Shown here piece by piece: positions 5,155 through 64,000 of a stretch of 64,000 bases of DNA; positions within the stretch are counted from its first letter, which is position 1, and every line of letters starts with the position of its first letter. Under the pieces are notes generated by a model that was not told the DNA's origin, made no database searches, and saw only the letters and a list, made by a program, of their open reading frames with translations. Origin of the DNA: Verrucomicrobiota bacterium (GTDB taxonomy: Bacteria; Verrucomicrobiota; Kiritimatiellia; CAIQIC01; JAGNIJ01). Position numbers and translations under genes: made by a program. The stretch lies in contig JAKLGK010000001.1 of the NCBI GenBank assembly GCA_022710725.1, forward strand, positions 113,010-177,009, written 5' to 3'.

Positions 5155-5213
5155 GGTTCTGCTATTTCCTTTGGACGCCGGGCGCAGGAGCCGCGTACGA
5201 ATCCGTTTCCAGA

Positions 5214-6370: not shown

Positions 6371-6384
6371 GTCAGCACGGAGAA

Positions 6385-7383: not shown

Positions 7384-7437
7384 CGCTGAATTAGACCGAT
7401 AAGATGCCGGATTATTCAACATCGAATTGAGCGGAGG

Positions 7438-7866: not shown

Positions 7867-7875
7867 GGAAATACG

Positions 7876-8508: not shown

Positions 8509-8524
8509 GCCGCGCGCCTTCCGC

Positions 8525-9591: not shown

Positions 9592-9597
9592 GCCCGC

Positions 9598-9828
9598 TCA
9601 CTCGACGACCTCCAGCATGGCCCGCTTCCCCTGCCGGGCGGCCGCCGTGCTCACCAGCGTGCGGATGGCGCCGACGGTCTTGCCGTTCTTCCCGATTACC
9701 TTGCCCACGTCCTCGGGGTGACATCGCAACTCGAAGATCACCGTGCGCTCGCCGTCCACCTCGGTCAGGCGGACGTCCTGGGGATGATCCACCAGCGCGC
9801 GGACAATATACTCCACCAGTTCCCTCAT
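9598..9828 (-). CDS. KH-domain RNA-binding protein (YlqC/UPF0109 family)
   Basis: 76-aa protein with 'VGKVIGKNGKTVGAIRTLV', lying between rpsP and trmD. Confidence 0.8.
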   Translation of the reverse strand: MRELVEYIVRALVDHPQDVRLTEVDGERTVIFELRCHPEDVGKVIGKNGKTVGAIRTLVSTAAARQGKRAMLEVVE

Positions 9829-9838
9829 AACCCCATCC

Positions 9839-10105
9839 TCAAGCGGGCGCCGCGGCCCGCCGCTGTGTCGCCCGGTTCTTTTTCAGCAGGCTTCGGACCG
9901 TGTCGGACACCTGCGCGCCCTTGTCGGTCCAGTACTCGATCCGCTCGACCTTCAGCTCGTAGTTCGAGCCCTTGCGCTTCGGATCGTACCAGCCGACGGT
10001 TTCCAGAAAACGCCCGCTGTTCGGACACCGCATGTCCGTGACCACCACCCGGAAGAAGGGCTGCTTGTTGCTGCCCATTCTCCGCAATCGAATCTTGACT
10101 GCCAT
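9839..10105 (-). CDS. rpsP: 30S ribosomal protein S16
   Basis: 'MAVKIRLRRMGSNKQPFFRVVVTD' matches S16. Confidence 0.9.
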   Translation of the reverse strand: MAVKIRLRRMGSNKQPFFRVVVTDMRCPNSGRFLETVGWYDPKRKGSNYELKVERIEYWTDKGAQVSDTVRSLLKKNRATQRRAAAPA

Positions 10106-50100: not shown

Positions 50101-53100
50101 GACGGCGTTATGGACGCCCAGCGTCGCGCTCGCGCCCCAGCACTCGCCGAAGAAAATCTTCTCCGTCGCGCCGTGCATCAGGCTGGCGCCGGCCCACTTC
50201 TGCGCGCCGTCCCACGTGAAGTTCATGATGAAGGCCGCGTACACCTTGCCGCTCGTCCGCGCGGCGAACGAGCGCGATACGTACAGGCCCGCGTTATTCG
50301 AGGGCACCATCACGATCTTATTGCCCGTCGGCGTCGGGTAGTTCGTCTGGCCCGAGAAGCTGCCCGCGTGGTTCGTGACCCAGCCGGTGTTGCCCGACCA
50401 TGCCCCGCTCCAGTCGTTGCTGCCCGCGCAGTTCGCCAGCGTCGTGCCGTTGGTGTACGAGAACGTGTCCACGATCTCCTGCGCGGCGAACTGCTCCGTC
50501 GTCTCGGAATCCGTCAGGCCGGCGGAATAGTGGTTGTTGTTCACGGAGTAGAACGCGTAGTGGTGCTCCGTGCCGGACGCGACCATGTGCTCCAGGCTCG
50601 AGCCCGAGCCCTTGTAGATCACCGTGCCGCTGCCGCAGGAATCCCCAATGTTGTACGTCGTGCCTTGCGTCGGCGCCGTCGAGGCCGCGCCCGGCCGGTG
50701 GACGATCATCACGTCGTACGTGGCGTTCTTCGTCCACGCCAGGTCCATCAGGGTCTTGCCATCCGCCGTCGCGGTCGCCACCGACGGATCGGGGATGTTC
50801 GTCAGGACCAGGACGGCCTGCACGACCTGCGGGCTGTTCGTCGCCGCGTCGTTGCCCGCGCCGGTGTTGGTCACCGTGTTCGTGCCGTAGTAGGTCCCCG
50901 CGGACAGGCCCGTCGCCACAAAGAAGTTCGTGTGGACCTTGCTCGCGCCGTTCGCCAGGCTGCTGCCCGTCAGCGGCCGCACGGTCAGCCAGGCCGCGTT
51001 GGTCGAAAGCACGTACGACAGCGCCCCGCCGCCGATGTTCGTCACGGCGAAGGTGTGGCTCGTCGGCGTGGACCCTACCACGCCGTACACCGCCAGCGCC
51101 GCGCCCACGCCGATGCCCGGGTGGCTCTTCAGCGTCACCGTGCCCGTGGCGGAATTGACGCTCGTGCACAGGGTGTTCGTCCCGCGCACGCGGTAGTAGT
51201 ACACCCCGCCCTCCGTCAGCCCCGTCACCGCGTTGCTCGTCGCCGATACCGCCACGTTGGAGTAGCCGGTCGCATAGGCGATCGCGTTGGACGTGCCGCC
51301 GACGATCACGTCGTCGAAGGCCAGGTTGCCCGCGCTCTTGGTGTAGGTGAAGCGCAGCTTCGTGACCGATCCCGACAGCGGCATGTTCGTGTTCTCGCCC
51401 GTGGTCGGCAGCGGCATGATCGTGGACACCGTGCTCCAGCTGCCGGCATAACCCTCCACCAGCAGCGACGAACTCGCGTCCGTGCCGTTGCCCTTGACCC
51501 AGATCGTCACGCCCGTCGGGCTGCCGCCCAGCGTCGGGGTCTCCACCGCGTCGCCCGTGGCGTCCATCTGCAGCGACGGCGAGCCGCGGCCGTAATTGCC
51601 ATCGGAGGAATAGGTTCCGCCGATGGCGGTGAAGGTCCAGCCGCCGGGCGGGGTCGTCCCGCCGTCAAACGCCTCGTCGATCAGCAGGGCGGCCACCGTG
51701 CTGCCCTGGTAGACATCCAGCTGGTACCCGGTCGCGCCGGCCAGCGCGCTCCAGTTGGCCGTGAAGTCCGCGAAGTTCGTCGGGTTGGCGTAGAGGCCGA
51801 TCGGCCCGTTGGTGAAGCAGGACGCGACGTTCGTGACCACGTAGCCGTAGCCCGCCCCGATCGTGTTGGTCGCGTAGGCCCGGACGTAGTAGGTCTGGCC
51901 GGGCGTCAGGTTGGCCATCGTCGCCGAGAACTCGCCCAGACCCGAGCCGTTGGTCGTGCAGGGGTCGGCGATCGTCGGCGGGTTGGACGTGCTCCAGCAG
52001 ACGCCGCGCCGGGTGACCGTCGCGCCCTTCTCGTCCGTCACGTTGCCGCCGCTCACGGCGGAGCCCGGGATGTTGTTGCTGATCGCGAAGGTCGTCACGG
52101 CCGGCGTGTCCAGCGGGGCCTGGCTGCCCGTCCGCGGGTCGCTGGTCCGGTAGTTCTGGAGCCCGTCGTCGCCGTTGAACTCGTAGATCGCCACGTGGTA
52201 CGTCACGCCGGCGGTCAGGGCGGACATCACCACGCTGGTCCCGCTGCCGATGTACACGACGTAGTTGCCCGTGCCGAGCTGTGTGCCGCTGCCGAAGGCC
52301 GCGTTGTTCGTGTAGCCCATCCCGTCCGCCGGGTTCGAGTCCACCGCGCTCCCCTGCTTGACCACCACAATGGAGTTCGCGCCGTCCCCGCCGGACCAGC
52401 CGATCTGGAAGCTCGTCGCCGTGATGAGCGTGAAGGCCACCGCCGTCGGGTTCGCCGAAGGCTCCGCCGCGAAGGTCGTCGCGTTCGCCGTCGGGATCGT
52501 CGCCGCCGTCAGGTAGTTGTAGGTCTGCCATTGCCCGCCGTCGGCGTTGAACGGGACGATCGAGAAGTTGTACTGCGTGCTCGCCGTCAGGTTGCTGACC
52601 GTCGTGCCCGTCTCGGCCCCGCCGGTGACGATGTTCACCAGGGTCGCGTCGCCGAAGACCGTGGCGAGGGCGTAGTTCGTGCCGTCCGTCGGCGTGCCCG
52701 TCGGGTCGGCGCCCTGCCGCCGGAGGATCAGGTAGCCGTCCACCGGCGCGGACGCCGCCGTCCACGACAGGTTGATCGTCGAGGCCGAGGCCGCCGCGGC
52801 CGCGAAGCTGCCCGCGTGGCCCGCCGGCTCCGCGCTCAAGGTGTACGCCGTGATGACGTTCGAGTTCGAGCTCGCGCCGCTGGCGTTCTCCGCCCGCACC
52901 CGGTAGTAGTACGTCGCGCCCGCGGCCAGGTTGGTCACCAGCTCCGTCGTCGCGCTGACCGAGCGGTTCGAGTAGCCGGGGACGTAGGAATCGCCGGCGG
53001 AAATGCCCCGCAGCAGGACGTCGTCCACGCGCATGGCCGTGCCGCCCGTCTTGACCCAGCGCAGGCTCAAGTTGGCGCTGATCGCCTCCGCGGCCAGCCC

Positions 53101-56100
53101 GAGGTTGGTGACCATGTACCAACCGGCGCCGTCCCCCTCCGCCGGCATATTCGACACGGTGACGGCGTTCCACGCCGTTCCGCTATTGGTGGACCACTCC
53201 AGGTTGAACGTCGCGTTGTTGCCCGCGGCTTCCTTGCGGTACCCGAAGTTCAACTGGAGATAGGCGTAGCCCGTCGAGTCGATCCCGGCGATGCTGAACC
53301 CGTAGTCGCCGGACGTGGAGGTGTGGTAGACGTTGGCCGCGTCGGAGGCCGCGTTGCCGGCCGGGTCGGTGTACCCGCTGGACGAGCTGGTGGCCCGGAG
53401 ATCCGCCGGGCTCGCGGCGCCGCCGTCGGACATGGTGTACCCGTCGTTATCAAAGCCGTTGGCCGATTCGTGCGACGCTATGGTCGTCGTGCCGCCGACC
53501 GTGCCCATGGTCTCGCGGAACACCGTTGTGGTCGTGCCGCCGCCCGAGCTGAAGTCCGAACTCGTGGCCACGTCCAGCCGGTAGCCCGTGGCGCCGGAGA
53601 CGGCGTTCCAGTTGGCCCAGAAGTTGGCAGTGGTCCAGTTCGTCGCCGCCGTGGCGATCGGCGCGGCACAGAGGGTCAGGGCCGTGTTGGTCGTCGAGTA
53701 GACGCTGATGCCGCCGCTGTCCTGGGCGCGCAGCCGCCAGTAGTAGGTCGTCGCCGCAGTCAGGCCCGTGACGCTGAAGGTCGTCACGTCGCCGATCACG
53801 CGGGCCGAGTAGCCGTTGACGAAGCCGGCGAACGTCGAGGACGCGGAGGCGTCGAGCAGGTAGTTCGTCGCCCCCGTCGCCGCGCTCCAGTTGGCGGAGA
53901 AGCTGGCGACCGCCAGGTCCGACGCCGCGCTCAAGACCGGCGCGTCGGGCACGGTCCAGAAGGAGCCGTCGGCCGAGTAGGCCTTGCCCTGCGTGTTGCT
54001 GGCCCAGCCGCGGAAGTAGATTAGCGTGCCCGCGGGCAGGCCGCTGCGCGCGTGCGAGAAGACGCCCGTCGCCGTGCCGCCCTCGCTCGCTTCGTTGGCC
54101 GTCGGCGTCGCCGAGGTGTCCCACACCGTGCCGCGCGAGCCGAGCGCCACGCCGCCGTTGGTCGAGATCTCCGCGCCCAGCGTCGCGCCGTTGGCCGTGA
54201 CCGAGGCGTAGGTCGGGTTGATCACCGTCGGCGCGGCCTGGCTGGCGCGCCGGCCCGGCTCGCCGCTGGCCTGGAAGTCGCCCCGGCTGGCGCTCGTGTT
54301 GTTCGTCGCCCGCACCCAGTAGTAGTACTGCTGGCCCGCCGTGGCGCTCGTGTCGTCGTAGTTCGTCGTGCCCGCCGTGACGCTGGCCAGGAAGGAGGCC
54401 GAGCCGGAAGCGTCGGAGGTGTGCCGCCAGATCCCGTAGCTCGTTTCGCCCGCCAGGTCACCCCACTGCAGCGCCACCCGGTCGGAGTACAGGTCGTCGC
54501 TGGCCACGACGTTCGAGACGATCATGAGCTTCCGGTAGCCGCTGTCGGAGGCGCTGAAATCGCTCTGGCTGGAGGTCACGTTGTTCGTCGCCCGCACCCA
54601 GTAGTAGTAGAGCTGGCCGAAGTCGGCCGTGGCGTCGTCGTAGCCCGTGGCGTCCGCGGCCGCGCTGCCCAGGAACGTCGCGCTCCCGGAATCGTCCGCC
54701 GTGTGGCGCCAGATCCCGTAGCTCGTCTCGCCCGCGCCGTCCGTCCAGGCGACGGCCACCTGCACGGTGGAGGCGCCGTCCCCGGCCGTCACCCCGCCGA
54801 CCGTCGCCAGCTTCCGGTAGCCGGCCGAGCCGCTGGCCTGGAAGTCGCTCTGGCTCGAGCTCGTGTTGTTCGTCGCACGCACCCAGTAGTAGTACTGCTC
54901 GCCCGCCGTCGCCGATGTGTCGTTGTACGTCGTCGAACCCGCCGCCACGCTGGCGACGAACGACGCCCCGCCCGAGGCGTCCGCGGTGTTCCGGTAGATC
55001 GCGTAGCTCGTCTCGCCCGAGATGTCCGTCCAGTCCACCTGCACGTGCGCCGTGCTCGTGCCGTCCGACGCCCCCGTCACCGACACCGTCGCCATCTTCC
55101 GGTAACCGCTGTCCGACGTGCTCTCCGCGCTCGAGCCGGCCGGGTTCGTCGCCGTGACCCAGTAGTAGTAGAGCTGGCCCGCGGTCGCCCCGGTGTCGTT
55201 GTAGGTGAGGGTGTTCGCCGCGTTGGTGTAGATCGCCGTCGAGCTGGCGAAGGTGTCGACCGTGTTGCGCCACAGGACGAAGCCGGTCTCGCTGGAGACG
55301 TCGTTCCAGCTGTTGCTGACGTGCGCCGTGGAGCTGCCGTCCGAGGCCGCGAGGCCGGTCGGCGCCGCGGGCGCCACCTGGCTCGTCGTCACCGTCTGCG
55401 TCGTGGAGTCGGCGCTGACGCACGACCCGCCGCCCACCGCCCGCACGCGGTAGTAATACGCCGTGTCCGCCGTCAGCCCCGTCACCACCTGGCTCACCGC
55501 CGAGACGGAACGGTTGGAGAAGCCGGGGACGAAGCTGGAGCCGCCGCCCAAAGAGGTGACGATGATATCGTGCACGTAAACGGCGCCGGAAGGCTCCGAC
55601 AGACGTAATTCGACGCTCGAATTGGCGTCGTTCACGTAGTTCGAAAACACGGCGCCCGTGGTCGTGGGGTCGAAGGTGGTGACATCCGTCCAGCCCCCGC
55701 CGTTGACGTTCTTCTGGAGCTTGATCGTGCGGCTCGCGCCGGCATCCAGATGAAAGACCGCCGACCCGACGGTATTGAGGGCCGGCAAGGCCAGGATGCC
55801 ATTGGCGGCTTTCAATTGGACTCGCCCCACGGTGCAAGGCCCATCGGCGGAAGCGCTGGGCTGGATGATGCAACGGGTCATCGTGACCGTGCCGGCCGCG
55901 ATGATCTCCGTATACGAACCATAACTGGCTTGAGCCGTCCAACTCTGGATGTTCTCCGAAACCAGCGTGCTCGGCGCCCCGCCGCCGAATGTTCCGTTCG
56001 TGGCGACGTCCAGCTGGTAGCTGGCCGCGCCGCCGAGGGCGGTCCAGTTGGCGGTGAAGTTGGTGGAGCTGATGGCGCTGCCCGCCGCGCTGGTCGGCGC

Positions 56101-59100
56101 GACCTGGAAGCAGTCGGCCACGAAATTCGACTCGTCGCCGTATCCGGTGGGCGAGGCCTCGCTGTTCTGGGCGAAGGCGCGGACGTAGTAGGTCTGGCCC
56201 GGGGTCAGGCCGGTGATGTCGCTGTAGAAGATGCCGGTGCCGGTGCCGTTGGTCGTCCGGGCGTCGGCAATGGTCGGCGTGCCGCCGGTGTTCCAGCACA
56301 CGCCGCGGTTGGTGACGGCGGAGCCGCCCTGCAGGCTGATGTTGCCGCCGCTCTTGATGCTGGTCGGCAGGCTGTTGCTGAACGCGGCCGTGGTCAGCGT
56401 CGGCGGCCCGCCCGCCGGCGTGAAGGTCAGGACCAGGCACCCGCCGCTGGCGGCCAGCGAGAACCCGCCGCCGCCCAAACCCAGGCTCCACGCGCTGCTC
56501 GAGTCCAGGCTGAAATTCGCGGCGGACGAGATGCCGCCGCCGATCAGCACCCAGGAGTACGCGTTCGCGTTGTTGAAGTTCGACGTCACGTCGTCGTCGA
56601 TGACAATCGTCGTCGTCGCGTTGATCGTCGCCGTGCCGGTGCTGTTGGTCACGTAGTCGCGGTCGAGCGTATCGGAGCAGTTCCCGATCTGGAAGACCGC
56701 CTTCGAGCCGTTGTTCATCGTCAGCGAGGACACGAGCAGGCGCCCGATGGCGTTCGACGTCGCGCCCGGGTACATCGTGCCGGCCACGGTCAAGCCGCCC
56801 ACGCTGCCGGAGCCCGTCAGCGTGCCCGCGGCGTTGACCGTGATGGCGGAGCTGGTGTTCGTGCCGTTCATGATCAGCGTGCCGGCGCTGACCGTCGTCG
56901 CGCCGCTATAGCTGCTGGCGCCGGTGAGCTTCAGCGTGCCGGTCAGGAGCTTGTTCAGCGTGTTCCCGCCGCTGATCGCCCCGCTCAAGGTCAGCATGTC
57001 CAGCGACACGCCGATGGACGTCGCGGCGTTCAGCGAGATCGTGCCGGACACCGTGTTGTTGCCCGCGACGTTGCGCAGCGCGCCGAACAGGCCGCCGCCG
57101 GTGCCGCTCAACACCAGGTTCTCCGCCGAGGTGATGTTGTTGGTCAGCTCCAGCCGCCCGCCGCTGGCGACCGTGGTGCTGCCCGCCGAGGTGCCCAGGC
57201 CGTTGTTGTGCGCGATCCGGATCGTGCCCGCGTCGATCACGGTCCCGCCGCTGTAGCTGTTGTTGTTGGTGAACAGCACCATCCCGGCGCCCCGGTTCGT
57301 CACGTAGCCGGTGCCGCTGATGACGCCGAGGTAGTTCGTGTCGTCCGTGCGGTAGAACGCGAGGGCCGAGTTGTTGACGATGCTGGCGGCCGTCACGGCG
57401 CCGGCCGTGCCGTTGGCGCCGAGCTGCACCGCGCCCGCGCTGATCGTCAGCGCGCCGCTGAACGTGTTGTAGCCGGTCAGGGTCAGCAGGCCCGCCCCGT
57501 CCTTGGTCACGGTCCCCGCCCCGGTCCCGATGGCGCTGCTGACCACGATGTTCGAGGCGCCGCCGAAGGTGAGGTTGTAGCCGCTGCCGGAAATGGCCGT
57601 CGCGGAGTTCAGCGTCAGGATGCCCGAGTCGGAATTGATCCGCACGCCCGTGCTCTGCAGCGTGATCGCGCCGGCGAAGGTGTTGTTGCCGCTGATGTTC
57701 CGCAGCGCGCCGCCGCTGGCGATGCCCGTGCCGTTCAGGAACAGCGGCTCCGCCGCCGTCGTGATCCCGCCCGCCAGCTCCAGCGCGCTGGCGGTCGAGT
57801 TGGCGACGTAGGTGTTCCCGCCCGTTCCGCCCAGGCCGTTCGCGTTCGTCACCCGCACCACGCCCTGCGTGATGGAGAGGTTGCCGCTGAAGGTGTTGTT
57901 GCCCGCCAGGATCAGCGTGCCCTTTCCGATGTTCGTCCAGGCCGCCGAGTTCTGGATCACGCCGTTGACCGTCGCCGTGCTGTCCGGCGCCACCCAGATC
58001 CGCGGGCCGGCGGTGGTTCCCAGCTCGATGGTCCGGTTCGCGTGCAACGTGAAGACGTTCGTGAAGCCCAGCGTGCCCGTGCTCCAGACGTTGATCTTCT
58101 CCCCCGCGCCGCCCGGCACCGGGCCCGCCGCCAGGTCCGCCCCGAACGCCAGGATGCCCGCCGTAATGTGCGCCACGCCCGAGTTGGTGTTGAACCCCGT
58201 CAGCGTCAGCATTCCCGACTCCACTTTCTGCCAGTTCGCCGTCCCCACCATGCTGCCGCCGTAGCTCACCGCGTTCCCGCTGGTCACGCCCAGCTTCGGC
58301 GTGGCCACGTCCCCCAGCCGTATGCCGCGGTTGGCGTTCAGGGCGAAGGATCCCGTGAACTGCAGCGTGCCGCTCGACCAGACCTCGAAGTGGTTGGTCA
58401 CCAGCGAGGCGGGCGCCGCGCCGAAGCACAGGTCCGCCGAGCCCTGCAGGATGCCGTTTTCCGCCGCCGAACCGCCCGTGTAGGTGTTGGTCGTGCAGCC
58501 CAGCGTGATCGTGCCCGTGCCGATCTTGTAGAGGCGGTTGGCCGTCGTGCCCGACGCGCAGGCCGCGCCCAGGCCGTCCGTGATCAGGCCGTTGATCGTG
58601 GACGTGCCGTTGCCCCCGCCGAACTCCACCGCGCCGGTGTCTCGCACGGTGGCCGTCTGCTTCCAGTAGGAGTTCTGGCGGTTGTCACCCCAGTCCCACT
58701 GGTACCGCCGGTCGTCATTCAGGAAGATCGAGTAGGCGTCGATGCGGGCCGACGTCGCCGGCGAACCCGCCATCGTCCAGTCGTATTTCGTCTTCCCGTT
58801 CAGGTCCACGTTGAACGTCGAGCTGGAGGTGATCTTGACCTTGACCGTGTAGTTTGCCGCCGACGAGCCCGCGGGCGTGTTCGTGAAGGATTCCCCCGCC
58901 CCGCTGCCGATCGCGTACCACGACCCGATGCCCCCGCCCGACCCGTAGTTCCCGCCGTCCTGACGGACGGACAGTCGCGACCCGCTGACCCGGTTCGCCC
59001 ACGGCGTGCCGGTCGAGCCGCCGTCGTTCAGCGACACGCCGATCTCGCCGTAGTAGCAGCCGTAGCTGTACACGGTGATGCTGAACTCGTCGCCCACCTG

Positions 59101-59880
59101 CAGCTCGCGCGCGGAGGAGGTCGTCGCGCTGGCCGTGCGGAACGTCTTCCAAGCCACCGTGTAGCCCTGGTCGCCGCCCGCCCACATGCCCAGTTCGGTG
59201 CTCCCCCCCGTGTCGAACGTGCCGGCGCCGCTATCCCACCGCGTGTCGTACTGGCTCTGCTGCTGGAGATTCGTGACCGCGGAGAGGTTCTCGCAGGTGT
59301 TCATCTTGTACAGCTCAACATACGTTGAGGCGCTGGAATAGGCGGCAAACCGGGGCGAGCTCGAGTTGTACTGCAGTTTGCGCGCAGACGCGGCGCCCAC
59401 ATTTTGAATCAAGAACCGGCTGGACGCAGTGGTGGCGAACGTCCAGTGCCAGATTGTCGCAGAGCTGGCGGAAGCGGATCTGATCATGCCGTTGGCGGCG
59501 GGGGCGCCGATGTAGATGCTGCCAGCCTCATTGTAGATGCCATAGCTGCTCGAAACCGCATCGATTCTCCACACGCGCCCGACGGCCGGGTCCACAATGG
59601 CGCTGGCGGTGATGGTGACCGCCTGGGCGGAGAGGGCTGCCGTGGATACCGTCGCGAGCGCCGAAGACGCCATCGCGTTGGCGGTGCCGCCGCCGACGAA
59701 GACGTAGTAGCCGCCGGAGGTGATGTCGGCCGTGGACGTGATCAGGGTGAACGTCCCCGACCCGGAGTAGGCGGCCTCGGACCGCATCGGCGCGAGGCAC
59801 CAGGCCGCCGCTGCGATCGCCAGCGCCAACGGCCGCCAGCCGCGCCGGGCGACAGGCTTCGACATCGTTTCATGCTTCAT
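41110..59880 (-). CDS. giant secreted Ser/Thr/Gly/Asn-rich surface protein (6256 aa): signal peptide, PATR (autotransporter-associated beta-strand) repeats, FN3-like arrays, large internal repeats, D-x-D-x-D-R modules
   Basis: It is a single uninterrupted ORF, and I counted all 6256 residues. The N-terminal 'MKHETMSKPVARRGWRPLALAIAAAAWCLAPMRSEAAY' is a signal peptide. Residues ~440-1160 are PATR repeats such as 'GTLILAGNNTFSGNLSITQGVVRV' and 'GMVLFTNNNSYSGGTVIDAGTIRI'. FN3-like modules recur with '...TYYYRVRA / YYYWVRATN'. A GGAGGAG RBS lies 8 nt before the ATG at 59880. Confidence 0.85.
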   Translation of the reverse strand: MKHETMSKPVARRGWRPLALAIAAAAWCLAPMRSEAAYSGSGTFTLITSTADITSGGYYVFVGGGTANAMASSALATVSTAALSAQAVTITASAIVDPAVGRVWRIDAVSSSYGIYNEAGSIYIGAPAANGMIRSASASSATIWHWTFATTASSRFLIQNVGAASARKLQYNSSSPRFAAYSSASTYVELYKMNTCENLSAVTNLQQQSQYDTRWDSGAGTFDTGGSTELGMWAGGDQGYTVAWKTFRTASATTSSARELQVGDEFSITVYSYGCYYGEIGVSLNDGGSTGTPWANRVSGSRLSVRQDGGNYGSGGGIGSWYAIGSGAGESFTNTPAGSSAANYTVKVKITSSSTFNVDLNGKTKYDWTMAGSPATSARIDAYSIFLNDDRRYQWDWGDNRQNSYWKQTATVRDTGAVEFGGGNGTSTINGLITDGLGAACASGTTANRLYKIGTGTITLGCTTNTYTGGSAAENGILQGSADLCFGAAPASLVTNHFEVWSSGTLQFTGSFALNANRGIRLGDVATPKLGVTSGNAVSYGGSMVGTANWQKVESGMLTLTGFNTNSGVAHITAGILAFGADLAAGPVPGGAGEKINVWSTGTLGFTNVFTLHANRTIELGTTAGPRIWVAPDSTATVNGVIQNSAAWTNIGKGTLILAGNNTFSGNLSITQGVVRVTNANGLGGTGGNTYVANSTASALELAGGITTAAEPLFLNGTGIASGGALRNISGNNTFAGAITLQSTGVRINSDSGILTLNSATAISGSGYNLTFGGASNIVVSSAIGTGAGTVTKDGAGLLTLTGYNTFSGALTISAGAVQLGANGTAGAVTAASIVNNSALAFYRTDDTNYLGVISGTGYVTNRGAGMVLFTNNNSYSGGTVIDAGTIRIAHNNGLGTSAGSTTVASGGRLELTNNITSAENLVLSGTGGGLFGALRNVAGNNTVSGTISLNAATSIGVSLDMLTLSGAISGGNTLNKLLTGTLKLTGASSYSGATTVSAGTLIMNGTNTSSAITVNAAGTLTGSGSVGGLTVAGTMYPGATSNAIGRLLVSSLTMNNGSKAVFQIGNCSDTLDRDYVTNSTGTATINATTTIVIDDDVTSNFNNANAYSWVLIGGGISSAANFSLDSSSAWSLGLGGGGFSLAASGGCLVLTFTPAGGPPTLTTAAFSNSLPTSIKSGGNISLQGGSAVTNRGVCWNTGGTPTIADARTTNGTGTGIFYSDITGLTPGQTYYVRAFAQNSEASPTGYGDESNFVADCFQVAPTSAAGSAISSTNFTANWTALGGAASYQLDVATNGTFGGGAPSTLVSENIQSWTAQASYGSYTEIIAAGTVTMTRCIIQPSASADGPCTVGRVQLKAANGILALPALNTVGSAVFHLDAGASRTIKLQKNVNGGGWTDVTTFDPTTTGAVFSNYVNDANSSVELRLSEPSGAVYVHDIIVTSLGGGSSFVPGFSNRSVSAVSQVVTGLTADTAYYYRVRAVGGGSCVSADSTTQTVTTSQVAPAAPTGLAASDGSSTAHVSNSWNDVSSETGFVLWRNTVDTFASSTAIYTNAANTLTYNDTGATAGQLYYYWVTATNPAGSSAESTSDSGYRKMATVSVTGASDGTSTAHVQVDWTDISGETSYAIYRNTADASGGASFVASVAAGSTTYNDTSATAGEQYYYWVRATNNTSSSQSDFQASGSAGYRKLATVGGVTAGDGASTVQVAVAWTDGAGETSYGIWRHTADDSGSATFLGSAAADATGYDDATADFGQLYYYWVRATNNVTSSQSDFSASDSGYRKLMIVSNVVASDDLYSDRVALQWGDLAGETSYGIWRHTSDASGSASFLASVTAGTTNYDDTSATAGQQYYYWVRATNNTSASRGDFQASGEPGRRASQAAPTVINPTYASVTANGATLGAEISTNGGVALGSRGTVWDTSATPTANEASEGGTATGVFSHARSGLPAGTLIYFRGWASNTQGKAYSADGSFWTVPDAPVLSAASDLAVASFSANWSAATGATNYLLDASASSTFAGFVNGYSARVIGDVTTFSVTGLTAATTYYWRLRAQDSGGISVYSTTNTALTLCAAPIATAATNWTTANFWANWNAVSGATGYRLDVATSSDFSSGGGTTTTVFRETMGTVGGTTTIASHESANGFDNDGYTMSDGGAASPADLRATSSSSGYTDPAGNAASDAANVYHTSTSGDYGFSIAGIDSTGYAYLQLNFGYRKEAAGNNATFNLEWSTNSGTAWNAVTVSNMPAEGDGAGWYMVTNLGLAAEAISANLSLRWVKTGGTAMRVDDVLLRGISAGDSYVPGYSNRSVSATTELVTNLAAGATYYYRVRAENASGASSNSNVITAYTLSAEPAGHAGSFAAAAASASTINLSWTAASAPVDGYLILRRQGADPTGTPTDGTNYALATVFGDATLVNIVTGGAETGTTVSNLTASTQYNFSIVPFNADGGQWQTYNYLTAATIPTANATTFAAEPSANPTAVAFTLITATSFQIGWSGGDGANSIVVVKQGSAVDSNPADGMGYTNNAAFGSGTQLGTGNYVVYIGSGTSVVMSALTAGVTYHVAIYEFNGDDGLQNYRTSDPRTGSQAPLDTPAVTTFAISNNIPGSAVSGGNVTDEKGATVTRRGVCWSTSNPPTIADPCTTNGSGLGEFSATMANLTPGQTYYVRAYATNTIGAGYGYVVTNVASCFTNGPIGLYANPTNFADFTANWSALAGATGYQLDVYQGSTVAALLIDEAFDGGTTPPGGWTFTAIGGTYSSDGNYGRGSPSLQMDATGDAVETPTLGGSPTGVTIWVKGNGTDASSSLLVEGYAGSWSTVSTIMPLPTTGENTNMPLSGSVTKLRFTYTKSAGNLAFDDVIVGGTSNAIAYATGYSNVAVSATSNAVTGLTEGGVYYYRVRGTNTLCTSVNSATGTVTLKSHPGIGVGAALAVYGVVGSTPTSHTFAVTNIGGGALSYVLSTNAAWLTVRPLTGSSLANGASKVHTNFFVATGLSAGTYYGTNTVTNTGAGNDAATNSPQVVQAVLVLTNIPDPSVATATADGKTLMDLAWTKNATYDVMIVHRPGAASTAPTQGTTYNIGDSCGSGTVIYKGSGSSLEHMVASGTEHHYAFYSVNNNHYSAGLTDSETTEQFAAQEIVDTFSYTNGTTLANCAGSNDWSGAWSGNTGWVTNHAGSFSGQTNYPTPTGNKIVMVPSNNAGLYVSRSFAARTSGKVYAAFIMNFTWDGAQKWAGASLMHGATEKIFFGECWGASATLGVHNAVSTKKLDYGSGNDYVIIMRYDFSTDDAHASAYKIGADSVPDSEPGSWDAEYLNVGGVTQIDGISLRAGASEGYGTPGVVYFDEVRVATNWSELLAVVPSKPEDPVSASATADGNEMVRLGWEKNGAGNGVMILYKTSAISTDPTDGTTYSLNDTIDGATVIYKGTGDTLEHVVADGSSAYYQFYSYNAVNYYSTGLTANVTMGSYQSYEIVNPFSYTNATAPGTATKGGKGFGDNYWAVSGSWGIRTNSPTAEAAAIPRFVNIEGYTDMAGNLMRITGLGNGSSGYAERSLGAAINSGQIYVAFMMAYQYYGSNKWAGLSFYNGATEKAFFGKASGANWYTLGVAGDGGTAWSGYDLRPYGGGAEAHTGSVYLVLGKYDFSTKNLQANAYNLPTATEFPSSEPTSWDVTRTLGTGIDSVDRIRLNVGALNPDCGSIGDVYFDEIRLATNWSQLVGVTCPTWIGSNNVPVAVTNLGNSLTFECQTYPIGSGQSADLQIRWTDQTTSTYSMAWSSNHNNNSWWSYSAQMTKTGVHDFVYLAYGGSCSVISTNPSGSLTVNALVNPNPVSATRDSVNTNSQINLAWTKNTVGHDVMIVRNTSGSFTAPTPGTAYYAGETLGSDTVVYRGNASSFDDTGLASSQTYYYRFYSENYSYYSTGTVDSASTLGGSQAIVVDGNPADWQGTAGSTYNASTVSRNEFIWKDKCGEERKDVANTTNADIREVRIYADTTNVYFLVKYGDVTSDQHPYINIGLDTRRSSASGAMNWIGDDSGTFYGGNYFAGGQAAVHYAQRNITVHRADGAMQVEVYADDGGTWYGPPAGSAAAASAANNAMEFWINRSDLLVSSPVTARFTVASFLNNDLWNNSGDGTVQILAGTPDAADAASIAPEQVNDGDLSQSAWQEDISDNSIDFWFDVVFDANGVVANSIPSTPAVGFPTNNYAATANPTLWWNASTDSDGQVTGYFLEVGTNETLNGESGTTENGSIFLRVNLPATQTNYTLSTSATQYWWRVRARDTAGALSSGQIQMFRIGGKGDITGPLHTLLYIGTNLTGYLAGDFDAHIDKYGPIQSITDAEIQQAVNAIGFAIKIEDPSGVYATNRQNNSGPAPSNFTWNIVSDDGRVSPNWDVFRLYSDGSSNELGYDAVFYGSNIASSAGNSSPSITAWVHNAFTISGYDETIEYYLTVSSEDGCTENGSWAAYGSWNSYGAPAATYGGYCEDGPNTARNVSTNELIRINVTDDDDDVPTFAYGAQWASSRTLLASNATALLTASGSGQSVIYTGTDGGMTGTPLTLLFNAYDYYSGLQLSAAGSADTNTSLSVGSSSWQTNNIANYSASRSTVGDTTETNTVLAWHWDSLAFSDMTALWAGDGSGSAGETNPVMLTLRDTDHDRTDDASVASNVVFGYLQVTDDDSVAPSHTQFTIDGVGGYGSTNLLPGNIAVVGVNGSPSAKIEKFAFVVLAPFPAGTIVHFTDCGWADNAGTNWHRVTEFHTNLWIATGDADVGQVFELGLQDINSGGDQVTVYQYNGSVNASNDPDRVTFLYAVNMLGTNTAPQADGWYLPIVPTNNLCSALYRGLTNGVTAVSVGGAESVNIIYTGRLTGSSSELLASISDSNNWQVAASATDLNFSNFAFSVTSQGGMEWQTPNLTDAQVSTGQYTVVDVVSDYTSGLLATNNAYASAPHFLLYNADGDMALSNAMSVGFPNGVPVTTQALTRTASTGMWNYINIGTYSAVVYVTDFDFDRLNDNQDGSLAMPVAVTDDDADAPLFTNLTALGTGAGLTENGTMVLYDFDIPVDETTYTFTTNADTVVAHVTAGAVLGGGVDAINQGTGNPGYCAVTSKFYQAYQYLDFTLTVESGYALTVTNLTFMDNRSSTGPTDWYFLYSGDSYATALASGNHADTNWKTNSTALSLSSLEGAVTFRLHATNATGSTGSWRVDNLRLQGSLAPLPGSGLVSDQDLNQGTLSITARVTDATSGVYSNRHPTYGTRFDLVTPAGASLFNQQPFNIGPTNASQTIGEWANLYATNLSVAFANIVLGVHTASVYAADADNDRPDDNLQYTQQIAVTVIDDDTNPPVGGTIFQSMTKDKPFDYPNLHGPMVLYQGTTNASAAGVSTNRRWSLNDRMMQNVGSTNTPYLHINLYDESGYHRSGTEALSNLTLTIEGFITNDVSYLSLASSSASTTNNPAATNVWVFTSFGDMSFVGTTSKVTVSVSDTDKDRPDDASVLTAYQVGYIAWKDNDPSPAILQFPTNQTANTNALTVLLGPSPGAPTSNLWTYSTHPEDASNQVYAVSDGELAGVSGSSQLMLGFHSYDLGDDNVLGLQRDTTATTTSDGRTLTNTHISIGSVVSSNTANYSSGWSSSIGETRIAAQNATSYWAFTTFTSNQVGQFWDAAGHSNAIVLHALDSDNDRPGDQARTNLNAGWLVVYDDDTNAPTAPTALSVSPTDWTNANSFTLSFTDSSDASGILHYRYDTNAPASLTNGTEMPVSRIITGVAEGEITNRLFAVDADHDRAFDGQMSETTNFVTRLDQHAPPQIMGITVDEGEDPTTEVELNWTAAANAGNRPDGATLSPWNSYRIYFSEDGSTVTTSSAYFDGYTGQAALTNMSVSTVTLSNLIFGSDYKFRIVGRDRAGNEGPLSDEVVIVLPGFNVTQGLVKATSGDIRYSEIFWVAATNQSGGVNREYDLLWVDGSSFNDGMSNQWQFLQSGFTNSLSDTGGLNRTAPTLLTSNMRFYRAASKDRWMTNRSPRVASEEVYGLRTVTLYPGQNWVGLPVVPDSNTLKNVLGHYLPGGSAYTDPHSTIVTWYSRLTNETVQKDVYLLDWGSSNEWRTGQGWGGMNQVADHYAFPFDESVAINIPTNETQTYLLMFIGRVPTNNQTQVIQPNGAYNLVNMRLPCTMSPAQMNLLASGFKGGVGSMSADRIRKLNRQQQGVGFDVYYNTTRSRWEYVNNSSAAGFTISPDDGFLIWTRGSTTPWTWTNVPPYSLPTRLMNP

Positions 59881-60077
59881 GGCTTTTCACTCCTCCGGGC
59901 TCGCGAACGCCCGTCGCCCCCTTGGACTAGAACAACGGCTTCCGGTCCATTTCCGGCTGATCAACTCATCGGCTCTTTTCCTGACAGAAATACATTACCG
60001 TCCCCATAAGGAGACAGCTCACGCATAAAGGAGTTCTCCCTGCCGATCCGAGGGAAATCCCTTTTTTACTTACTAGT

Positions 60078-60107
60078 ATTAATACCTAGAATGCCGTTGG
60101 GCGTCAA
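60078..60107 (-). promoter_or_regulatory. near-consensus sigma70 promoter (TTGACG-17 bp-TATTAAT) in an AT-rich island, driving the giant gene
   Basis: The minus strand reads ccaTTGACGcccaacggcattctaggTATTAATactag. The -35 is at 60102-60107 and the -10 at 60078-60084. A local AT-rich stretch lies at 60061-60095 in an otherwise ~70% GC context. The implied 5' UTR is ~190 nt. Confidence 0.5.
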
Positions 60108-60353
60108 TGGATTGTGGACCGGCGCGACGCGGTTTCAGGCCCTGCGGAGACCCGGCGCCGGCGCCGGCGCGAAGAACGGCTCGCAGCGCCATCGCATCGT
60201 CACAATTTGCTATCAATAAGGAGATTCCGTATGTCGAAATTGAACGGGGTGTCTTGGAGGCCGTTCCAGGCCGGCTTGGACGCCGTTGACCCTATTGGGC
60301 CAAAGCACTACAAAGGCAGCGATATGGCGGCCTGCTGCACTCCGGACGGACGC

Positions 60354-62546
60354 CTACTCGATCCAGGCTTTCCCCGCCCGATACGATGCCAGCCGGGCCT
60401 CGATCTGCGCCGCCAGGTCCAGGCCGCCCCCCTCCCGCGCGAGTTCGGCGCCGCGTTTCGCCGCCTGGATCGCCCCGGGGAAGTCGCCGGCGTTCGCGCG
60501 CGCCGCGCCGAGCGTGTCCCACGCCGTGGCGGCCTTCCCGCCGTCCAGCTCGACCGCGCGCGCCGCCCATTCCACCGCCTTCGCGGGCCACTCCTCCATG
60601 CTGGCGTGGTTGACATCGACCGGCTTGGCCGTGGCGAGCAGCCACGCCATGTTGTTGAACGCCACGGCGTCCCGGGGATGCCGCTTCACGTACTCGAGGA
60701 AGTAGCCGTAGGCGTAGCCCCGCGCCCCGTCCAGCCAGATCTGCGCATAGCAGGGGAACAGGTCGCCCCAGGTGCGCCGGGGCTTGCCCGCCGCCTTGGT
60801 CATGCGCTCGGCTGCTTCCGCCGCCTCGTTCGTGCGGCCGGTCTCGTGGCAGACGCGGAGGTATTCCGCCACCGCGAAGGCCGTCGGGTCCTTTTCGAGG
60901 GCGACGGCCTCCTTGAACGCGCCGAACGCGCCGTCGAGGTCGCCCCGCGCCTGCATGCATTGCCCGCGGATGCGCCAGATGAAAATCCGCTCCAGGGGCC
61001 GCTGGTCCCGGACGGCTTCCATCAGGGTCTTGCCGAGCCCCTTCTCGAACCGGGGCCAGGCGTCCTCGGTCAGGTTCGGCCAGCCGCAGCAGTTCCAGAT
61101 CATGCACAGGCGCAGGAAGCAATGGGTGTCGTAGAACGCGCTGCCGGCCTCGTATGCGCGCATCGCCTGCGCCCAGTTCTTCTGGGACAGGTGGCCATCC
61201 CCGCCGAGCATGCAGGCGACCGGGTGGCCCGGGTTGTACGTCCATACCCAGATGCCGAAATGGTCGCGGCTCCGCCAGTGCCGCGACAGGGCCAGCGACA
61301 TCCCGCCCCACACGGCCAGGACCAGCGCGCAGGCGGCGGCGCCCCGCCGCGCGCTCCAGCCGCGCGAACGAATCCAGTCCGCCGCCGCCCACGCCGCGGC
61401 CAGCGTCAGGCCGATCTGCGGCAGGTACATGAACCGCGTAGCCACCCGCTCCGCCCCGGCCCAGATCACGCCGCTCAACGGGAAGAGCAGGCCCGCGAAC
61501 CAGAGCCAGCCCCAGAGCGCGAGGGGGAACCGGTGGCGCAGGCGCCACGCCCCCCAGGTCAGGCCCGCCAGCACGCAGAACGCCCCGGCGAGGAGTTCCC
61601 ACCACGACGGCAGGTCCGGCTGCAGCGGCATCAGCCGCGTCGGCCAGGCCAGCTTGGCCAGGTAGAAAAGGTAGTGGACGGGGATCATCCCCACGCGGTG
61701 CAGCACGGGCACGCTCACCACGGCCTTCCGCGCCACGTGGAACGCGATGGGCAGCGAGGCGAACCCGATCGCCAGGAGCCAGAACGCCCACTTCTCCGCG
61801 ATCAGTCGCCCCGCGTCCTTCCAGAAGCGACTCCAGTCCGTGCGGCCCAGCGGCCAGATGTCCAGCAGCAGGAAGGCCACCGGCATCACGATGACGACCT
61901 GCTTGGCCATGCCCCCGAGGAGCATGCAGAGCCAGGAGAGGAGGATGTACGAGGACGAGGAGGAGGACGAGGAAGAGGAAGAGGAGGAGGATTGGCGGGA
62001 GGCGGTGTAGAACCAGAAACCGAGGAGGATGAAAACCCCGCTCAACACGTCCTTCCGCTCGGTGATCCAGGCCACGCTCTCCACGCGCGTCGGGTGGAAG
62101 GCCCAGAGCAGCGTCGTCGCCAGCGCCAGGCCCACGCGGCCCGTCCAGCGCCGGATCAGCAGGAAGAGCAGGCCGACGTTCAGCGAGAAGAGGATCACGT
62201 TGGTCAGGTGGCAGCTCCACGGCGGCCCGCCGGAGATCTCCATGTCCAGCATGAAGCTCATCCAGAGCAGCGGCGCCCAGTAATTCTCCGGCGCCGTGGT
62301 CCACGCCAGCCGGAGGCCCTTCCAGGAGAAGCCGTCCCCGACCACCGGGCTGGTCTCCACGTAGATCGGGTCGTCCAGGGTGACGAAATCGTAGCCGATG
62401 GTCGGCGCGTACAGCGCAAAGGCGGCCGCCATCGCCAGGAGGCACGCCCCGGCGGCGCGCCCGCGCCCGCTGAAAAGACGACGGGGCTGATCGCGCGTCG
62501 GTTCAGCCAGCTTGCGTTTATCCGCTCTCATGTCTTTCGCCGTCAT
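60354..62546 (-). CDS. TMTC/PMT-like (DUF1736-type, GT-C fold) membrane protein with C-terminal TPR repeats; putative protein O-mannosyl/glycosyl-transferase
   Basis: N-terminal loop motif 'YDFVTLDDPIYVETSPV' (F-x-x-D-D) and 'AFHPTRVESVAWITERKDV' (HP..E.V..I..R.D) are the conserved TMTC/PMT loop signatures. There are more than 9 TM helices and a C-terminal TPR block. A 13-residue poly-Ser run is present. Confidence 0.7.
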   Translation of the reverse strand: MTAKDMRADKRKLAEPTRDQPRRLFSGRGRAAGACLLAMAAAFALYAPTIGYDFVTLDDPIYVETSPVVGDGFSWKGLRLAWTTAPENYWAPLLWMSFMLDMEISGGPPWSCHLTNVILFSLNVGLLFLLIRRWTGRVGLALATTLLWAFHPTRVESVAWITERKDVLSGVFILLGFWFYTASRQSSSSSSSSSSSSSSYILLSWLCMLLGGMAKQVVIVMPVAFLLLDIWPLGRTDWSRFWKDAGRLIAEKWAFWLLAIGFASLPIAFHVARKAVVSVPVLHRVGMIPVHYLFYLAKLAWPTRLMPLQPDLPSWWELLAGAFCVLAGLTWGAWRLRHRFPLALWGWLWFAGLLFPLSGVIWAGAERVATRFMYLPQIGLTLAAAWAAADWIRSRGWSARRGAAACALVLAVWGGMSLALSRHWRSRDHFGIWVWTYNPGHPVACMLGGDGHLSQKNWAQAMRAYEAGSAFYDTHCFLRLCMIWNCCGWPNLTEDAWPRFEKGLGKTLMEAVRDQRPLERIFIWRIRGQCMQARGDLDGAFGAFKEAVALEKDPTAFAVAEYLRVCHETGRTNEAAEAAERMTKAAGKPRRTWGDLFPCYAQIWLDGARGYAYGYFLEYVKRHPRDAVAFNNMAWLLATAKPVDVNHASMEEWPAKAVEWAARAVELDGGKAATAWDTLGAARANAGDFPGAIQAAKRGAELAREGGGLDLAAQIEARLASYRAGKAWIE

Positions 62547-63034
62547 GCCTCTTGCTCGTCCCCGCGCTCCTTCACTCCCTCGTTCTCGTCCTCTTCCTCG
62601 TCCTCGTTCTCGTCCTCGACCTCATACTCCATTCCGGCTTCCATCACCCGATCCGTTACAGAGAAACGATCCACCAATTTTGTGAGCATGGCAACAATCC
62701 GGACCAGCAGCATCTTTCCCTGCTCAACACGTTTTTCGGAACAAGCGTGTTTCGCGACCAACGCGTCGAGGCACGCCGCGCATTCCGTGGCCGAACCCCG
62801 GGCATCATCGAAGAACTTGGCCCGGGTTTTCATCGGCCGCTTGCCATTGCCCTCCGCCGTATTGAAAAGAGAGGAAAGACCGGCCCGGTCCAGGTGATCA
62901 CAGACCTCCGCAATCCTGCGCCCCCGGGCCTCGGCAGACTCGACCAGTTCCACCATCAAATCCGTTGACCATTCGACGAACCGCAGTTCGACCTGGTAGA
63001 CATCAAGGTTCTCGTGGTCCAACTCGTTTTGCAC
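62543..63034 (-). CDS. four-helix-bundle protein (TIGR02436-like, '23S rRNA intervening-sequence protein' family) with acidic C-terminal tail
   Basis: 'LDVYQVELRFVEWSTDLMV...SATECAACLDALVA' are conserved helices, and the tail is 'EYEVEDENEDEEEDENEG'. The GTG start at 63034 is preceded by an AGGAAAGGA RBS. Its stop overlaps the start of the TMTC-like gene. Confidence 0.75.
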   Translation of the reverse strand: MQNELDHENLDVYQVELRFVEWSTDLMVELVESAEARGRRIAEVCDHLDRAGLSSLFNTAEGNGKRPMKTRAKFFDDARGSATECAACLDALVAKHACSEKRVEQGKMLLVRIVAMLTKLVDRFSVTDRVMEAGMEYEVEDENEDEEEDENEGVKERGDEQEA

Positions 63035-63049
63035 GGAGGTTTCCTTTCC

Positions 63050-63285
63050 TCTCGTCCTCGTACTCCTCCTCGTCCATCGTTCCCGATCTCATCCCCTGCT
63101 CTTGTCGAGTACGACGGACGATAACGAGGACGACCGGAAATTCGCGTTTATTCGGCCGCAATCCTCCCCCATCGTTCCCGGTCTCCTCCTCGTCCATCGT
63201 CCTCGATCTCACCCCCCCCCGCTCTTGTCGAGTACGGGGGACGAGAACGAGGACGACGGGAAATAAGCATTCCTTCGGCCGCGAT
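63050..63285. repeat. tandem direct repeat, 2 copies of a ~118-bp unit, each with an internal imperfect inverted repeat
   Basis: The units at ~63050-63167 and ~63168-63285 share TCCTCCTCGTCCATCGT...GATCTCA...CCGCTCTTGTCGAGTAC...GGACGA.AACGAGGACGAC.GGAAAT...TTCGGCCGC.ATC. Within each unit TCGTCCTCG pairs with CGAGGACGA, and GTACTC with GAGTAC. Confidence 0.6.
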
Positions 63286-64000
63286 CATTCCCGCCACGCC
63301 AGGCCCATCCGGTATTTCAGGATGCGCTTTTCGATATCCGTTGCCAAGGCGTCATCCTTTTTCTCCTTGGCCAGGTCCCGCGCCTTCTCCGCCGCGCGGA
63401 CGGCGCCCGTGGAATCGCCCGCGTTGGCGCGCGCGGCGGCCAGCACGTCCCACACGCCGGGGAGCGACGGGTCGCCCGATGCGAGCGCGAGTTCCGCCCA
63501 GCGCACCGCGGCCTGCGGCCACTCCTCCATCCGCGCGTGGGCCAGGCCGTCCGGCATGGCCGTGGCCAGCAGCCAGGCCATGTAGTTCAGGTTGACGGCG
63601 TCCCCGGGAAACCGTTTCGCGTACTCGGCCAGGTAACCATACGCATACCCGCGGGCCCCCCGCTTCCACATCTCCGCGTAAAACGGGAACAGGTCGCGCC
63701 ACGCGCGGACGCGGACGTCCCCCGCGGCCGCCAGGCGCTCGGCCGCCTCGGCGCCCTCCTCCGGGCGGCCGGCCTCGTGGCAGGCGCGAAGGTAGTCCGC
63801 CACGACCAGGGCCGCGGGATCGGGCTCCCACCGGACGGCTTCCTTCAGCGCCGCGATCGCGCCGGCATGGTCGCCCCGGGCGAGCAGGACCTGCCCGCGC
63901 ACGCTCCAAGCCAGTTCCCGCTCCGGGGCCGGCTCCCAATCGGCGAAGCCCAGCAGCGGGAGGCCCCACTTCCGTTCGAACTCGACCCAGGCCGCCGCCG
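63285..64000 (-). CDS. TMTC/PMT-like TPR membrane protein, paralog of 60354..62546 (3' part only; gene continues beyond the window)
   Basis: The C-terminal 205 aa align residue by residue with the C-terminal TPR region of the neighbouring paralog ('LFPFYAEMWKRGARGYAYGYLAEYAKRFPGDAV' against 'LFPCYAQIWLDGARGYAYGYFLEYVKRHPRDAV'). The frame stays open to nt 64000. Confidence 0.65.
   Translation of the reverse strand, partial: AAAWVEFERKWGLPLLGFADWEPAPERELAWSVRGQVLLARGDHAGAIAALKEAVRWEPDPAALVVADYLRACHEAGRPEEGAEAAERLAAAGDVRVRAWRDLFPFYAEMWKRGARGYAYGYLAEYAKRFPGDAVNLNYMAWLLATAMPDGLAHARMEEWPQAAVRWAELALASGDPSLPGVWDVLAAARANAGDSTGAVRAAEKARDLAKEKKDDALATDIEKRILKYRMGLAWRE

Follow-up and report, generated by a model that had tools for sequence, protein, structure and literature searches.

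A TMTC-like pair of GT-C membrane glycosyltransferases encoded beside a giant Ser/Thr-rich secreted protein in Kiritimatiellia

Protein O-mannosylation by membrane glycosyltransferases (GTs) of the GT-C class is well studied in eukaryotes and actinobacteria. For the TMTC branch of these enzymes we know of no characterised bacterial member and no solved structure. Here we describe two paralogous membrane proteins, GT-A and GT-B, encoded close to the gene of a giant secreted protein at one end of a 64,000-nt stretch of DNA (hereafter the window; contig JAKLGK010000001.1, positions 113,010 to 177,009, assembly GCA_022710725.1) from a Kiritimatiellia bacterium. Sequence comparison and a structural model support both as GT-C enzymes of the lineage formed by TMTC and the protein O-mannosyltransferases (PMT), and they probably add sugars to secreted proteins. 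We propose that they form an ancient, order-conserved inner-membrane pair which glycosylates secreted proteins and for which the adjacent giants would be the preferred acceptors in this clade; to this proposal as a whole we give a probability of about 0.5. An earlier note on the window had gone further and suggested a dedicated, lineage-specific O-glycosylation system for the giant protein. Within this Kiritimatiellia clade such a dedicated adhesin glycosylation module is plausible but unproven, and the family associates more generally with genes for PEP-CTERM proteins and family 2 glycosyltransferases (GT2).

GT-B (also labelled GT1; 60354..62546, minus strand) is a TMTC-like protein of 730 aa, assigned as a GT-C glycosyltransferase from its motifs, its homology and its AlphaFold model. 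In the model an N-terminal membrane domain of 11 helices (residues ~1-425, nt 61272..62546) is followed by a C-terminal TPR domain (residues ~427-723, nt 60357..61268), with Pfam TPR matches at residues 523-705; the C-terminal repeats described in the earlier note are thus present. The host genome has a GC content of 69%, and the genes of the locus show the high third-position GC typical of real genes there (0.91 in GT-B). Homologues of GT-B number in the thousands, with a best E of 1e-236. The paralogue P0036 is named 'hypothetical protein' at NCBI, and some family members carry the JGI label 'protein O-mannosyl-transferase'.

Two motifs stand out in the membrane domain. The first, Y-D-F-V-T-L-D58-D59 (F54-x-x-x-D58-D59), ends in an acidic pair encoded at 62370..62375 in the predicted first periplasmic loop, a putative catalytic base or metal site. 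The second, H151-P-x-x-x-E156-x-V-x-x-I-x-x-R164-x-D166 (in full H151-P-T-R-V-E156-S-V-A-W-I-T-E-R164-K-D166), is encoded at 62049..62096 in the predicted second periplasmic loop and includes an RxD motif. Both had been noticed before, with a spacing one residue too short (the correct forms being F-x-x-x-D-D and HP-x-x-x-E). An alignment of GT-B with 40 homologues of 43-77% identity (41 sequences) shows that D58, D59, H151, P152, R154, V155, E156, S157, V158, W160, R164, K165 and D166 are invariant, and so are K215 and R371. The acidic loop residues, whose conservation the earlier note had proposed as a check, are therefore kept throughout.

Pfam and NCBIfam matched nothing but TPR in GT-B, the GT-A fragment and 41 homologues, and searches of the PDB with GT-B (phmmer and profile) returned TPR proteins only, with nothing for the membrane domain. 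The relationship of the membrane domain becomes visible when profiles are compared. We used HHalign with a reference of genuine TMTC3 database proteins, all of which carry PF08409, and compared membrane domains. The N-terminal domain of the family (A1) aligned to that of TMTC3 with Prob 99.66 and E 2.3e-24 in global mode and with Prob 98.9 and E 1.1e-17 in local mode, over ~390 columns, and the reversed-sequence control gave 0.1%. Sequence identity between GT-B and TMTC is only about 19%. The AlphaFold model of GT-B is confident (pLDDT 89.2, pTM 0.84); its N-terminal membrane domain has the polytopic GT-C fold, and the top fold match is a protein O-mannosyltransferase. The TMTC/PMT-type GT-C nature that the earlier note had claimed for the pair is borne out by these comparisons.

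Seven TMTC motifs, M1-M7, have been defined by Eisenhaber et al. (Table 4, PMC7801869), who mention prokaryotic TMTC homologues in passing. D58 and D59 of GT-B align with D31 and D32 of TMTC3 (M1, DD, loop EL1); H151, P152 and E156 align with H130, P131 and E135 of the HP...E motif; and R164-K-D166 aligns with R143-A-E145 (M3, RxD, EL2). The invariant K215 aligns with K188 of M4 (KE(T/Q)xxT, EL3), with no Thr at +5. In M6 (PxxP, transmembrane helix (TM) 9) P356 aligns with P361 and the first Pro is absent. In M7 (ERxxY, EL5) R371, Y374 and P376 align with R376, Y379 and P381; T370 takes the place of E375, and a Glu-Arg pair, E366-R367, lies 4-5 residues upstream of the M7 Arg. By analogy with the phosphate-binding Lys and Arg of TMTC with which they align, K215 and R371 are putative phosphate-binding residues, and the donor of GT-A and GT-B would be a polyprenyl-phosphate-linked sugar.

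The N-terminus of GT-B is basic, and the predicted cytoplasmic loops at residues 231-252, 336-340 and 395-398 are rich in Arg and Lys. With eleven transmembrane helices and these basic inner loops, the TPR domain comes to lie in the periplasm, as do the loops with DD, RKD, K215 and R371. On this model GT-B is predicted to have the TMTC topology: 11 TM helices, a cytoplasmic N-terminus and a TPR domain on the non-cytoplasmic side. No MIR (beta-trefoil) domain was matched in GT-B by Pfam, and the model is all-helical without a beta domain.

The copy of GT-A in the window (63285..>64000, minus strand), the upstream paralogue, is cut by the window end, and its C-terminal 237 aa correspond to the TPR domain. 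This fragment is 52% identical to residues 496-730 of GT-B over 235 aa (BLASTP, E 2e-62), which confirms the paralogy of the two proteins stated earlier. The earlier note had also ascribed the DD and HP motifs to both proteins, but in GT-A these lie outside the window. They are seen on a public contig of a Kiritimatiellia metagenome-assembled genome (L090, GCA_035913195.1) that matches the window at 99.991% identity over 10.7 kb and continues the locus in the upstream direction. There GT-A is complete, with 712 aa and 57% identity to full-length GT-B, and carries LVDD, HPARVESVAWITERKD, AKQ and ERVAVRFLYLPQ. D58, D59, R164, D166, K215 and R371 are kept in both paralogues. Proteins of the A type and of the B type fall into orthologous groups of their own (62-78% identity within, 49-58% between), so the A/B duplication is old and the gene order fixed.

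All genes of the locus lie on the minus strand, in the 5' to 3' order GT-A, 250 bp with hairpin repeats, a gene for a four-helix-bundle protein, GT-B, a spacer of 473 bp with a low-GC stretch (59881..60353), and the giant gene (41110..59880). The two glycosyltransferase genes had been described as directly upstream of the giant gene. This holds for GT-B, which lies 473 bp 5' of the giant open reading frame (ORF) on the same strand, but GT-A stands apart, with the four-helix-bundle gene and the repeats intervening.

The giant, a candidate acceptor of 6256 aa, is named 'autotransporter-associated beta strand repeat-containing protein' (Kiritimatiellia) at NCBI. It has a signal peptide, four PATR repeats, several fn3 domains and eight DxDxD sites, and 22.3% of its residues are Ser or Thr, against 9.3% in neighbouring proteins. 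Six C-terminal modules (residues ~4498-5691, nt 42800..46390) contain DxDxDRxxD followed ~20 residues later by (V/I)xDDDxxxP, and resemble, at the level of the motif only, the Ca2+ sites of cadherin inter-domain linkers. Pfam models of the cadherin type found no match in the giant, even at E<=10 over the DxDxD region. From the earlier picture of a Ser/Thr-rich protein with FN3- and cadherin-like modules, the composition, the fn3 domains and the DxDxD sites thus remain, but the cadherin part finds no Pfam match. Residues 31-204 (nt 59270..59790) make up an N-terminal domain of ~170 aa without a Pfam match. It is common to the giants of the four orthologous loci described below, with 48-55% identity, and is the best-conserved part of these otherwise shuffled proteins; its function could lie in secretion or anchoring.

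Four orthologous loci with 71-76% identity (L001, L003, L004/L005 and L089) repeat the order GT-A, GT-B, giant PATR/fn3 protein, and the near-identical contig L090 also has the GT pair together with giants. In the four orthologous loci the A-type and B-type genes overlap by 4 bp and a spacer of 214-555 bp separates the pair from the giant on the same strand. PATR and fn3 domains are found in their giants, of 12,857, 8,429, 12,524 and 6,935 aa, with weak matches of the cadherin-like and Calx-beta types in one of them. The upstream flank of L003 differs from those of the other orthologous loci. On L090 a second giant PATR/fn3 paralogue and a polytopic membrane protein of 529 aa precede GT-A (323..10001 of that contig, upstream of the window end). 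The second giant has 2677 aa and is 56% identical to parts of the 6256-aa giant. The 529-aa protein contains a 'YRPL' motif; it had no Pfam match, and HHalign gave no significant similarity to the GT-B family or to the family of a further membrane protein of the window at 30067..32037. With this second giant and membrane protein, the cluster is larger than the window shows.

The mechanism that we infer, from the lipid-linked donor and the protein nature of the acceptor to the identity of that acceptor and any heterodimerisation, would begin with a cytoplasmic GT2, encoded outside the window, that loads a hexose onto polyprenyl phosphate. The lipid-linked sugar would be flipped to the periplasmic face and its phosphate bound by the GT-C domain via K215 and R371. 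Using the D58-D59 loop, this domain would then pass the sugar on to Ser/Thr hydroxyls in secreted proteins emerging in the periplasm, while the periplasmic TPR solenoid would select and hold the acceptor. In this Kiritimatiellia clade the preferred acceptors would most likely be the adjacent giant Ser/Thr-rich PATR/fn3 proteins. GT-A and GT-B may form a heterodimer as Pmt1-Pmt2 do, or may have site specificities that are non-redundant, in the way of TMTC1-4.

Several observations weigh against this proposal, and a first group of them concerns the enzymes. PF02366 (PMT), PF13231 (PMT_2) and PF08409 (DUF1736) found no match in GT-B or 40 close homologues (PF08409 was searched at E<=1 for GT-B and at E<=10 for 41 family members). 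The profile check suggested in the earlier note therefore fails close to GT-B, but remote members do reach these families: two of ten remote representatives match, P0446 to PMT_2 (E 2.5e-7, above the cutoff) and P0302 to PMT (E 5.8e-4, below the cutoff). The TMTC motifs are incomplete as well. In M2 (SHKSYRP, EL1) only Y89 and P92 of GT-B align (with Y70 and P72), and H67 and K68, the His and Lys proposed to contact mannose and phosphate (PMC7801869), are replaced by P86 and E87. The metal-binding Glu of M4 is Gln216 in GT-B, and M5, the DW in the DUF1736 loop (EL4), falls in an alignment gap where the loop of GT-B is shorter. Since residues thought to contact mannose and metal in TMTC are missing in GT-B, its sugar and chemistry may differ. 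No gene for a GT2, a flippase or a donor synthase was found within the 64-kb window. In the literature we found no functional study of any bacterial TMTC-like enzyme and no reported link of such enzymes to PATR or PEP-CTERM proteins.

A second group of observations concerns the acceptor and is shared with the strongest rival explanation, which we consider possible though rather unlikely: that the pair is a general periplasmic O-glycosylation system for many Ser/Thr-rich secreted proteins, such as PEP-CTERM proteins, and that adjacency to the giant is an accident of this lineage. A pair of 65% identity (L088) has no giant beside it; RtcB follows and a GT2 gene lies divergently upstream. Nor does a pair of 56% identity (L006/L007), where two genes for unknown proteins of ~500 aa follow. 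In the wider family, 80 loci drawn from species-representative genomes all lack a neighbouring ORF of at least 1500 aa. The synteny expected by the earlier note thus exists in four loci but is lost beyond them; because it is kept only in close relatives, a dedicated module could at most be a specialisation of one clade within a very large family that, taken as a whole, is not adhesin-specific. The length of the spacer, 473 bp, points to separate transcription, with a promoter or 5' leader of the giant gene's own probably lying in it. Consensus scans of this spacer for promoters and terminators gave weak sites only and were uninformative, and Rfam detected neither a riboswitch nor a leader in 59500..64000, the only matches being chance ones of microRNA-like hairpins in the repeats.

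The size and neighbourhood of the family point in the same direction. Counted on representatives at 50% clustering, the membrane domain alone matches 51,662 sequences at E<=1e-3 and 9,177 at E<=1e-30, mostly from Verrucomicrobiota, Planctomycetota, Kiritimatiellia and Lentisphaerae. At least two adjacent same-strand copies are found in 48 of 84 non-duplicate loci, and in some the number within 20 kb reaches nine. A family with tens of thousands of members, often in arrays of up to nine, argues for broad rather than dedicated roles. No universally conserved neighbour was found; the commonest, a TonB-dependent-receptor-like gene at 14 loci, is convergently oriented and occurs solely in related Udaeobacter-like genomes. 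PEP-CTERM-like proteins are enriched beside the family in other lineages: of 15 Ser/Thr-rich ORFs of this type, ten lie immediately beside a family gene where 3.5 would be expected (P about 3e-4), in statistics for which the ORF calls were crude and the genomes partly related. At L086 (4409..10131), at L006 (7045..12112) and at several other loci of the PVC group (Planctomycetes, Verrucomicrobia and Chlamydiae) the family occurs in compact units, in which GT2, GT-C and GT-C genes stand with one for a small Ser/Thr-rich PEP-CTERM protein. This suggests that the GT-C family is generally linked to PEP-CTERM proteins. The enrichment also speaks for a Ser/Thr-rich protein acceptor, as in our own proposal. 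What speaks against mere accident at this locus is that the triad of GT-A, GT-B and giant is kept in four orthologous loci despite their differing upstream flanks, and that on L090, from the same organism, two giant paralogues are interleaved with membrane-protein and GT genes.

Small GT2 genes (245-264 aa, PF00535) directly adjoin family members in co-orientation at eight loci, which span Kiritimatiellia, Lentisphaerae, Planctomycetota and Verrucomicrobiota. Among NCBIfam models they match best dolichyl-phosphate hexose transferase, AglJ, PpgS and ArnC, all under the curated cutoffs. By analogy, such a GT2 is the expected partner of a GT-C enzyme that uses a polyprenyl-phosphate monosaccharide. 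A bolder form of our proposal would have the clade carry a periplasmic, heterodimeric TMTC-like O-glycosyltransferase pair dedicated to giants whose repeated beta-sandwich modules bear cadherin-linker-like Ca-binding motifs, a bacterial counterpart, possibly an evolutionary relative, of the animal pathway for O-mannosylation of cadherins by TMTC. In this form the family of more than 50,000 representatives would be the missing O-glycosyltransferase of Ser/Thr-rich PEP-CTERM and PATR surface proteins in PVC bacteria. We regard it as doubtful.

Transfer of the sugar to a non-protein acceptor, such as lipid A or the lipopolysaccharide (LPS) core, exopolysaccharide or peptidoglycan, would follow the example of ArnT, Aft and GtrC-type GT-C enzymes, with the TPR domain docking to envelope machinery. 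We consider this improbable: at profile level the best relative is TMTC, and a protein O-mannosyltransferase heads the fold matches, the TPR domain at the C-terminus is a protein-binding module, and the neighbours are enriched in Ser/Thr-rich secreted proteins, not in LPS or exopolysaccharide genes. That GT-A and GT-B are inactive scaffolds or chaperones, whose TPR domain aids export or folding of the giants and whose GT-C domain is a mere membrane anchor, could be argued from the missing TMTC motif residues and from a TPR domain of GT-B conserved as strongly as the membrane domain, extreme C-terminus included, but is very unlikely given that the residues for GT-C catalysis and lipid-phosphate binding (D58, D59, R164, D166, K215 and R371) are invariant in both paralogues and in 41 homologues, and that genes like those of polyprenyl-phosphate-sugar synthases (GT2) are recurrent neighbours.

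Between GT-A and GT-B the locus contains further features. The four-helix-bundle protein (62543..63034, minus strand, 163 aa) belongs to the 23S rRNA intervening-sequence protein family (PF05635, E 4e-11; TIGR02436, E 7.5e-11); the PF05635 family includes the Avd proteins of diversity-generating retroelements. The TGA of its gene overlaps the ATG of GT-B (ATGA), an arrangement of translational coupling. The gene is absent from the orthologous loci, where the A and B genes overlap directly, and thus looks like a lineage-specific insertion into the operon. Immediately upstream of it, between it and the GT-A stop, lie two ~120-nt direct repeats (63042..63292; repeat families D2 and D3, inverted repeats I8-I10), which are 80-83% identical and each form a long hairpin (RNAfold, -52 and -58 kcal/mol). 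These repeats may have arrived with the insertion, as a small element that is mobile or structured. A triplet repeat of the GAGGACGAG type occurs four times within 1.3 kb (61950..61991, 62567..62627, 63051..63075 and 63171..63195). It encodes the acidic EDENEDEEEDENE tail of the four-helix-bundle protein and, inverted, a run of 14 Ser in GT-B (residues 186-199; 61950..61991, minus strand; a TCC/TCT/TCG triplet repeat; repeat families D5 and I1-I7). The Ser run lies in the predicted cytoplasmic TM4-TM5 loop and is unique to GT-B, no other of 41 homologues having a Ser run longer than 3.

A third TPR membrane protein (30067..32037, minus strand, 656 aa) had been mentioned as nearby in the earlier note. 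It lies outside the module: it has the GT-C fold but represents another family, and carries an alpha/beta domain in the periplasm besides a short TPR tail. As a paralogue of GT-B it was rejected by BLASTP, single-sequence HHalign and profile HHalign alike. Its gene lies directly upstream of TamA and TamB, and eight genes, five of them core housekeeping genes (MazG, NusA, IF-2, TruB and RibF), separate it from the giant gene. The long plus-strand ORFs over 60114..62897 were discarded, being antisense artefacts that stem from high GC. On the plus strand from 60228, in the GT-B/giant spacer, an AAGGAG-ATG start opens a long ORF that runs antisense through GT-B, its first ~40 codons being intergenic; it is almost certainly a high-GC artefact. 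The remaining window is core chromosome, with ffh, prfA, prmC, rpmE, ppk, trmD, rplS, rnhB, nusA, infB, truB and ribF.

The locus offers a concrete enzyme-substrate hypothesis for a very large, unannotated bacterial family outside Pfam. If it is true, the way in which bacteria of the PVC group glycosylate their abundant Ser/Thr-rich surface proteins would be explained. TMTC structure, substrate recognition by TPR domains and the origin of the cadherin O-mannose pathway would then also have tractable models in prokaryotes. Should the giants stand beside the pair only by a chance of local gene order, what is left is an ordinary GT-C protein from a widespread family.

Among known systems, the closest likeness is to animal TMTC1-4 (CAZy GT105), the O-mannosyltransferases of the endoplasmic reticulum for cadherins and protocadherins. 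TMTC and the GT pair share the predicted arrangement of an 11-TM GT-C domain followed by TPR on the non-cytoplasmic side. GT-B and TMTC have in common the DD, HP...E and RxD motifs, the Lys of KE(T/Q)xxT, the second Pro of PxxP and the Arg, Tyr and Pro of EL5. In both cases several non-redundant paralogues are found per genome, and the (here putative) substrate is large and built from repeated beta-sandwich modules with acidic motifs like Ca sites, a parallel at the motif level only. Unlike TMTC, the pair is bacterial and would act in the periplasm with a polyprenyl donor, not in the endoplasmic reticulum; GT-B has no PF08409 match and a shorter EL4 loop, lacks DW, and has Pro and Glu for the His and Lys of SHKSYRP and Gln for the Glu of KE; and the bacterial genes are translationally coupled tandem pairs. 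GT-B differs from the PMT family (GT39: Pmt1-Pmt2, Pmt4, POMT1/2 and actinobacterial Pmt with Ppm1) in having no MIR domain, with a C-terminal TPR domain instead, in its acidic pair, which is DD and not DE, and in having no Pfam PMT match. ArnT/ArnC and other bacterial two-step systems of GT-C and GT2 enzymes differ in that ArnT modifies lipid A and has no TPR domain, and no GT2 lies beside the pair in the window. In HMW1C-HMW1, GtfA/B with serine-rich repeat proteins (SRRP), and Aah/TibC with AIDA/TibA, as would hold for our candidate, a glycosyltransferase gene adjoins the gene of the giant or repetitive adhesin that it modifies. However, HMW1C, GtfA/B and Aah/TibC are soluble cytoplasmic enzymes of the GT-B-fold or GT41 type that use nucleotide sugars before export, whereas the pair described here would consist of membrane GT-C enzymes acting after translocation.

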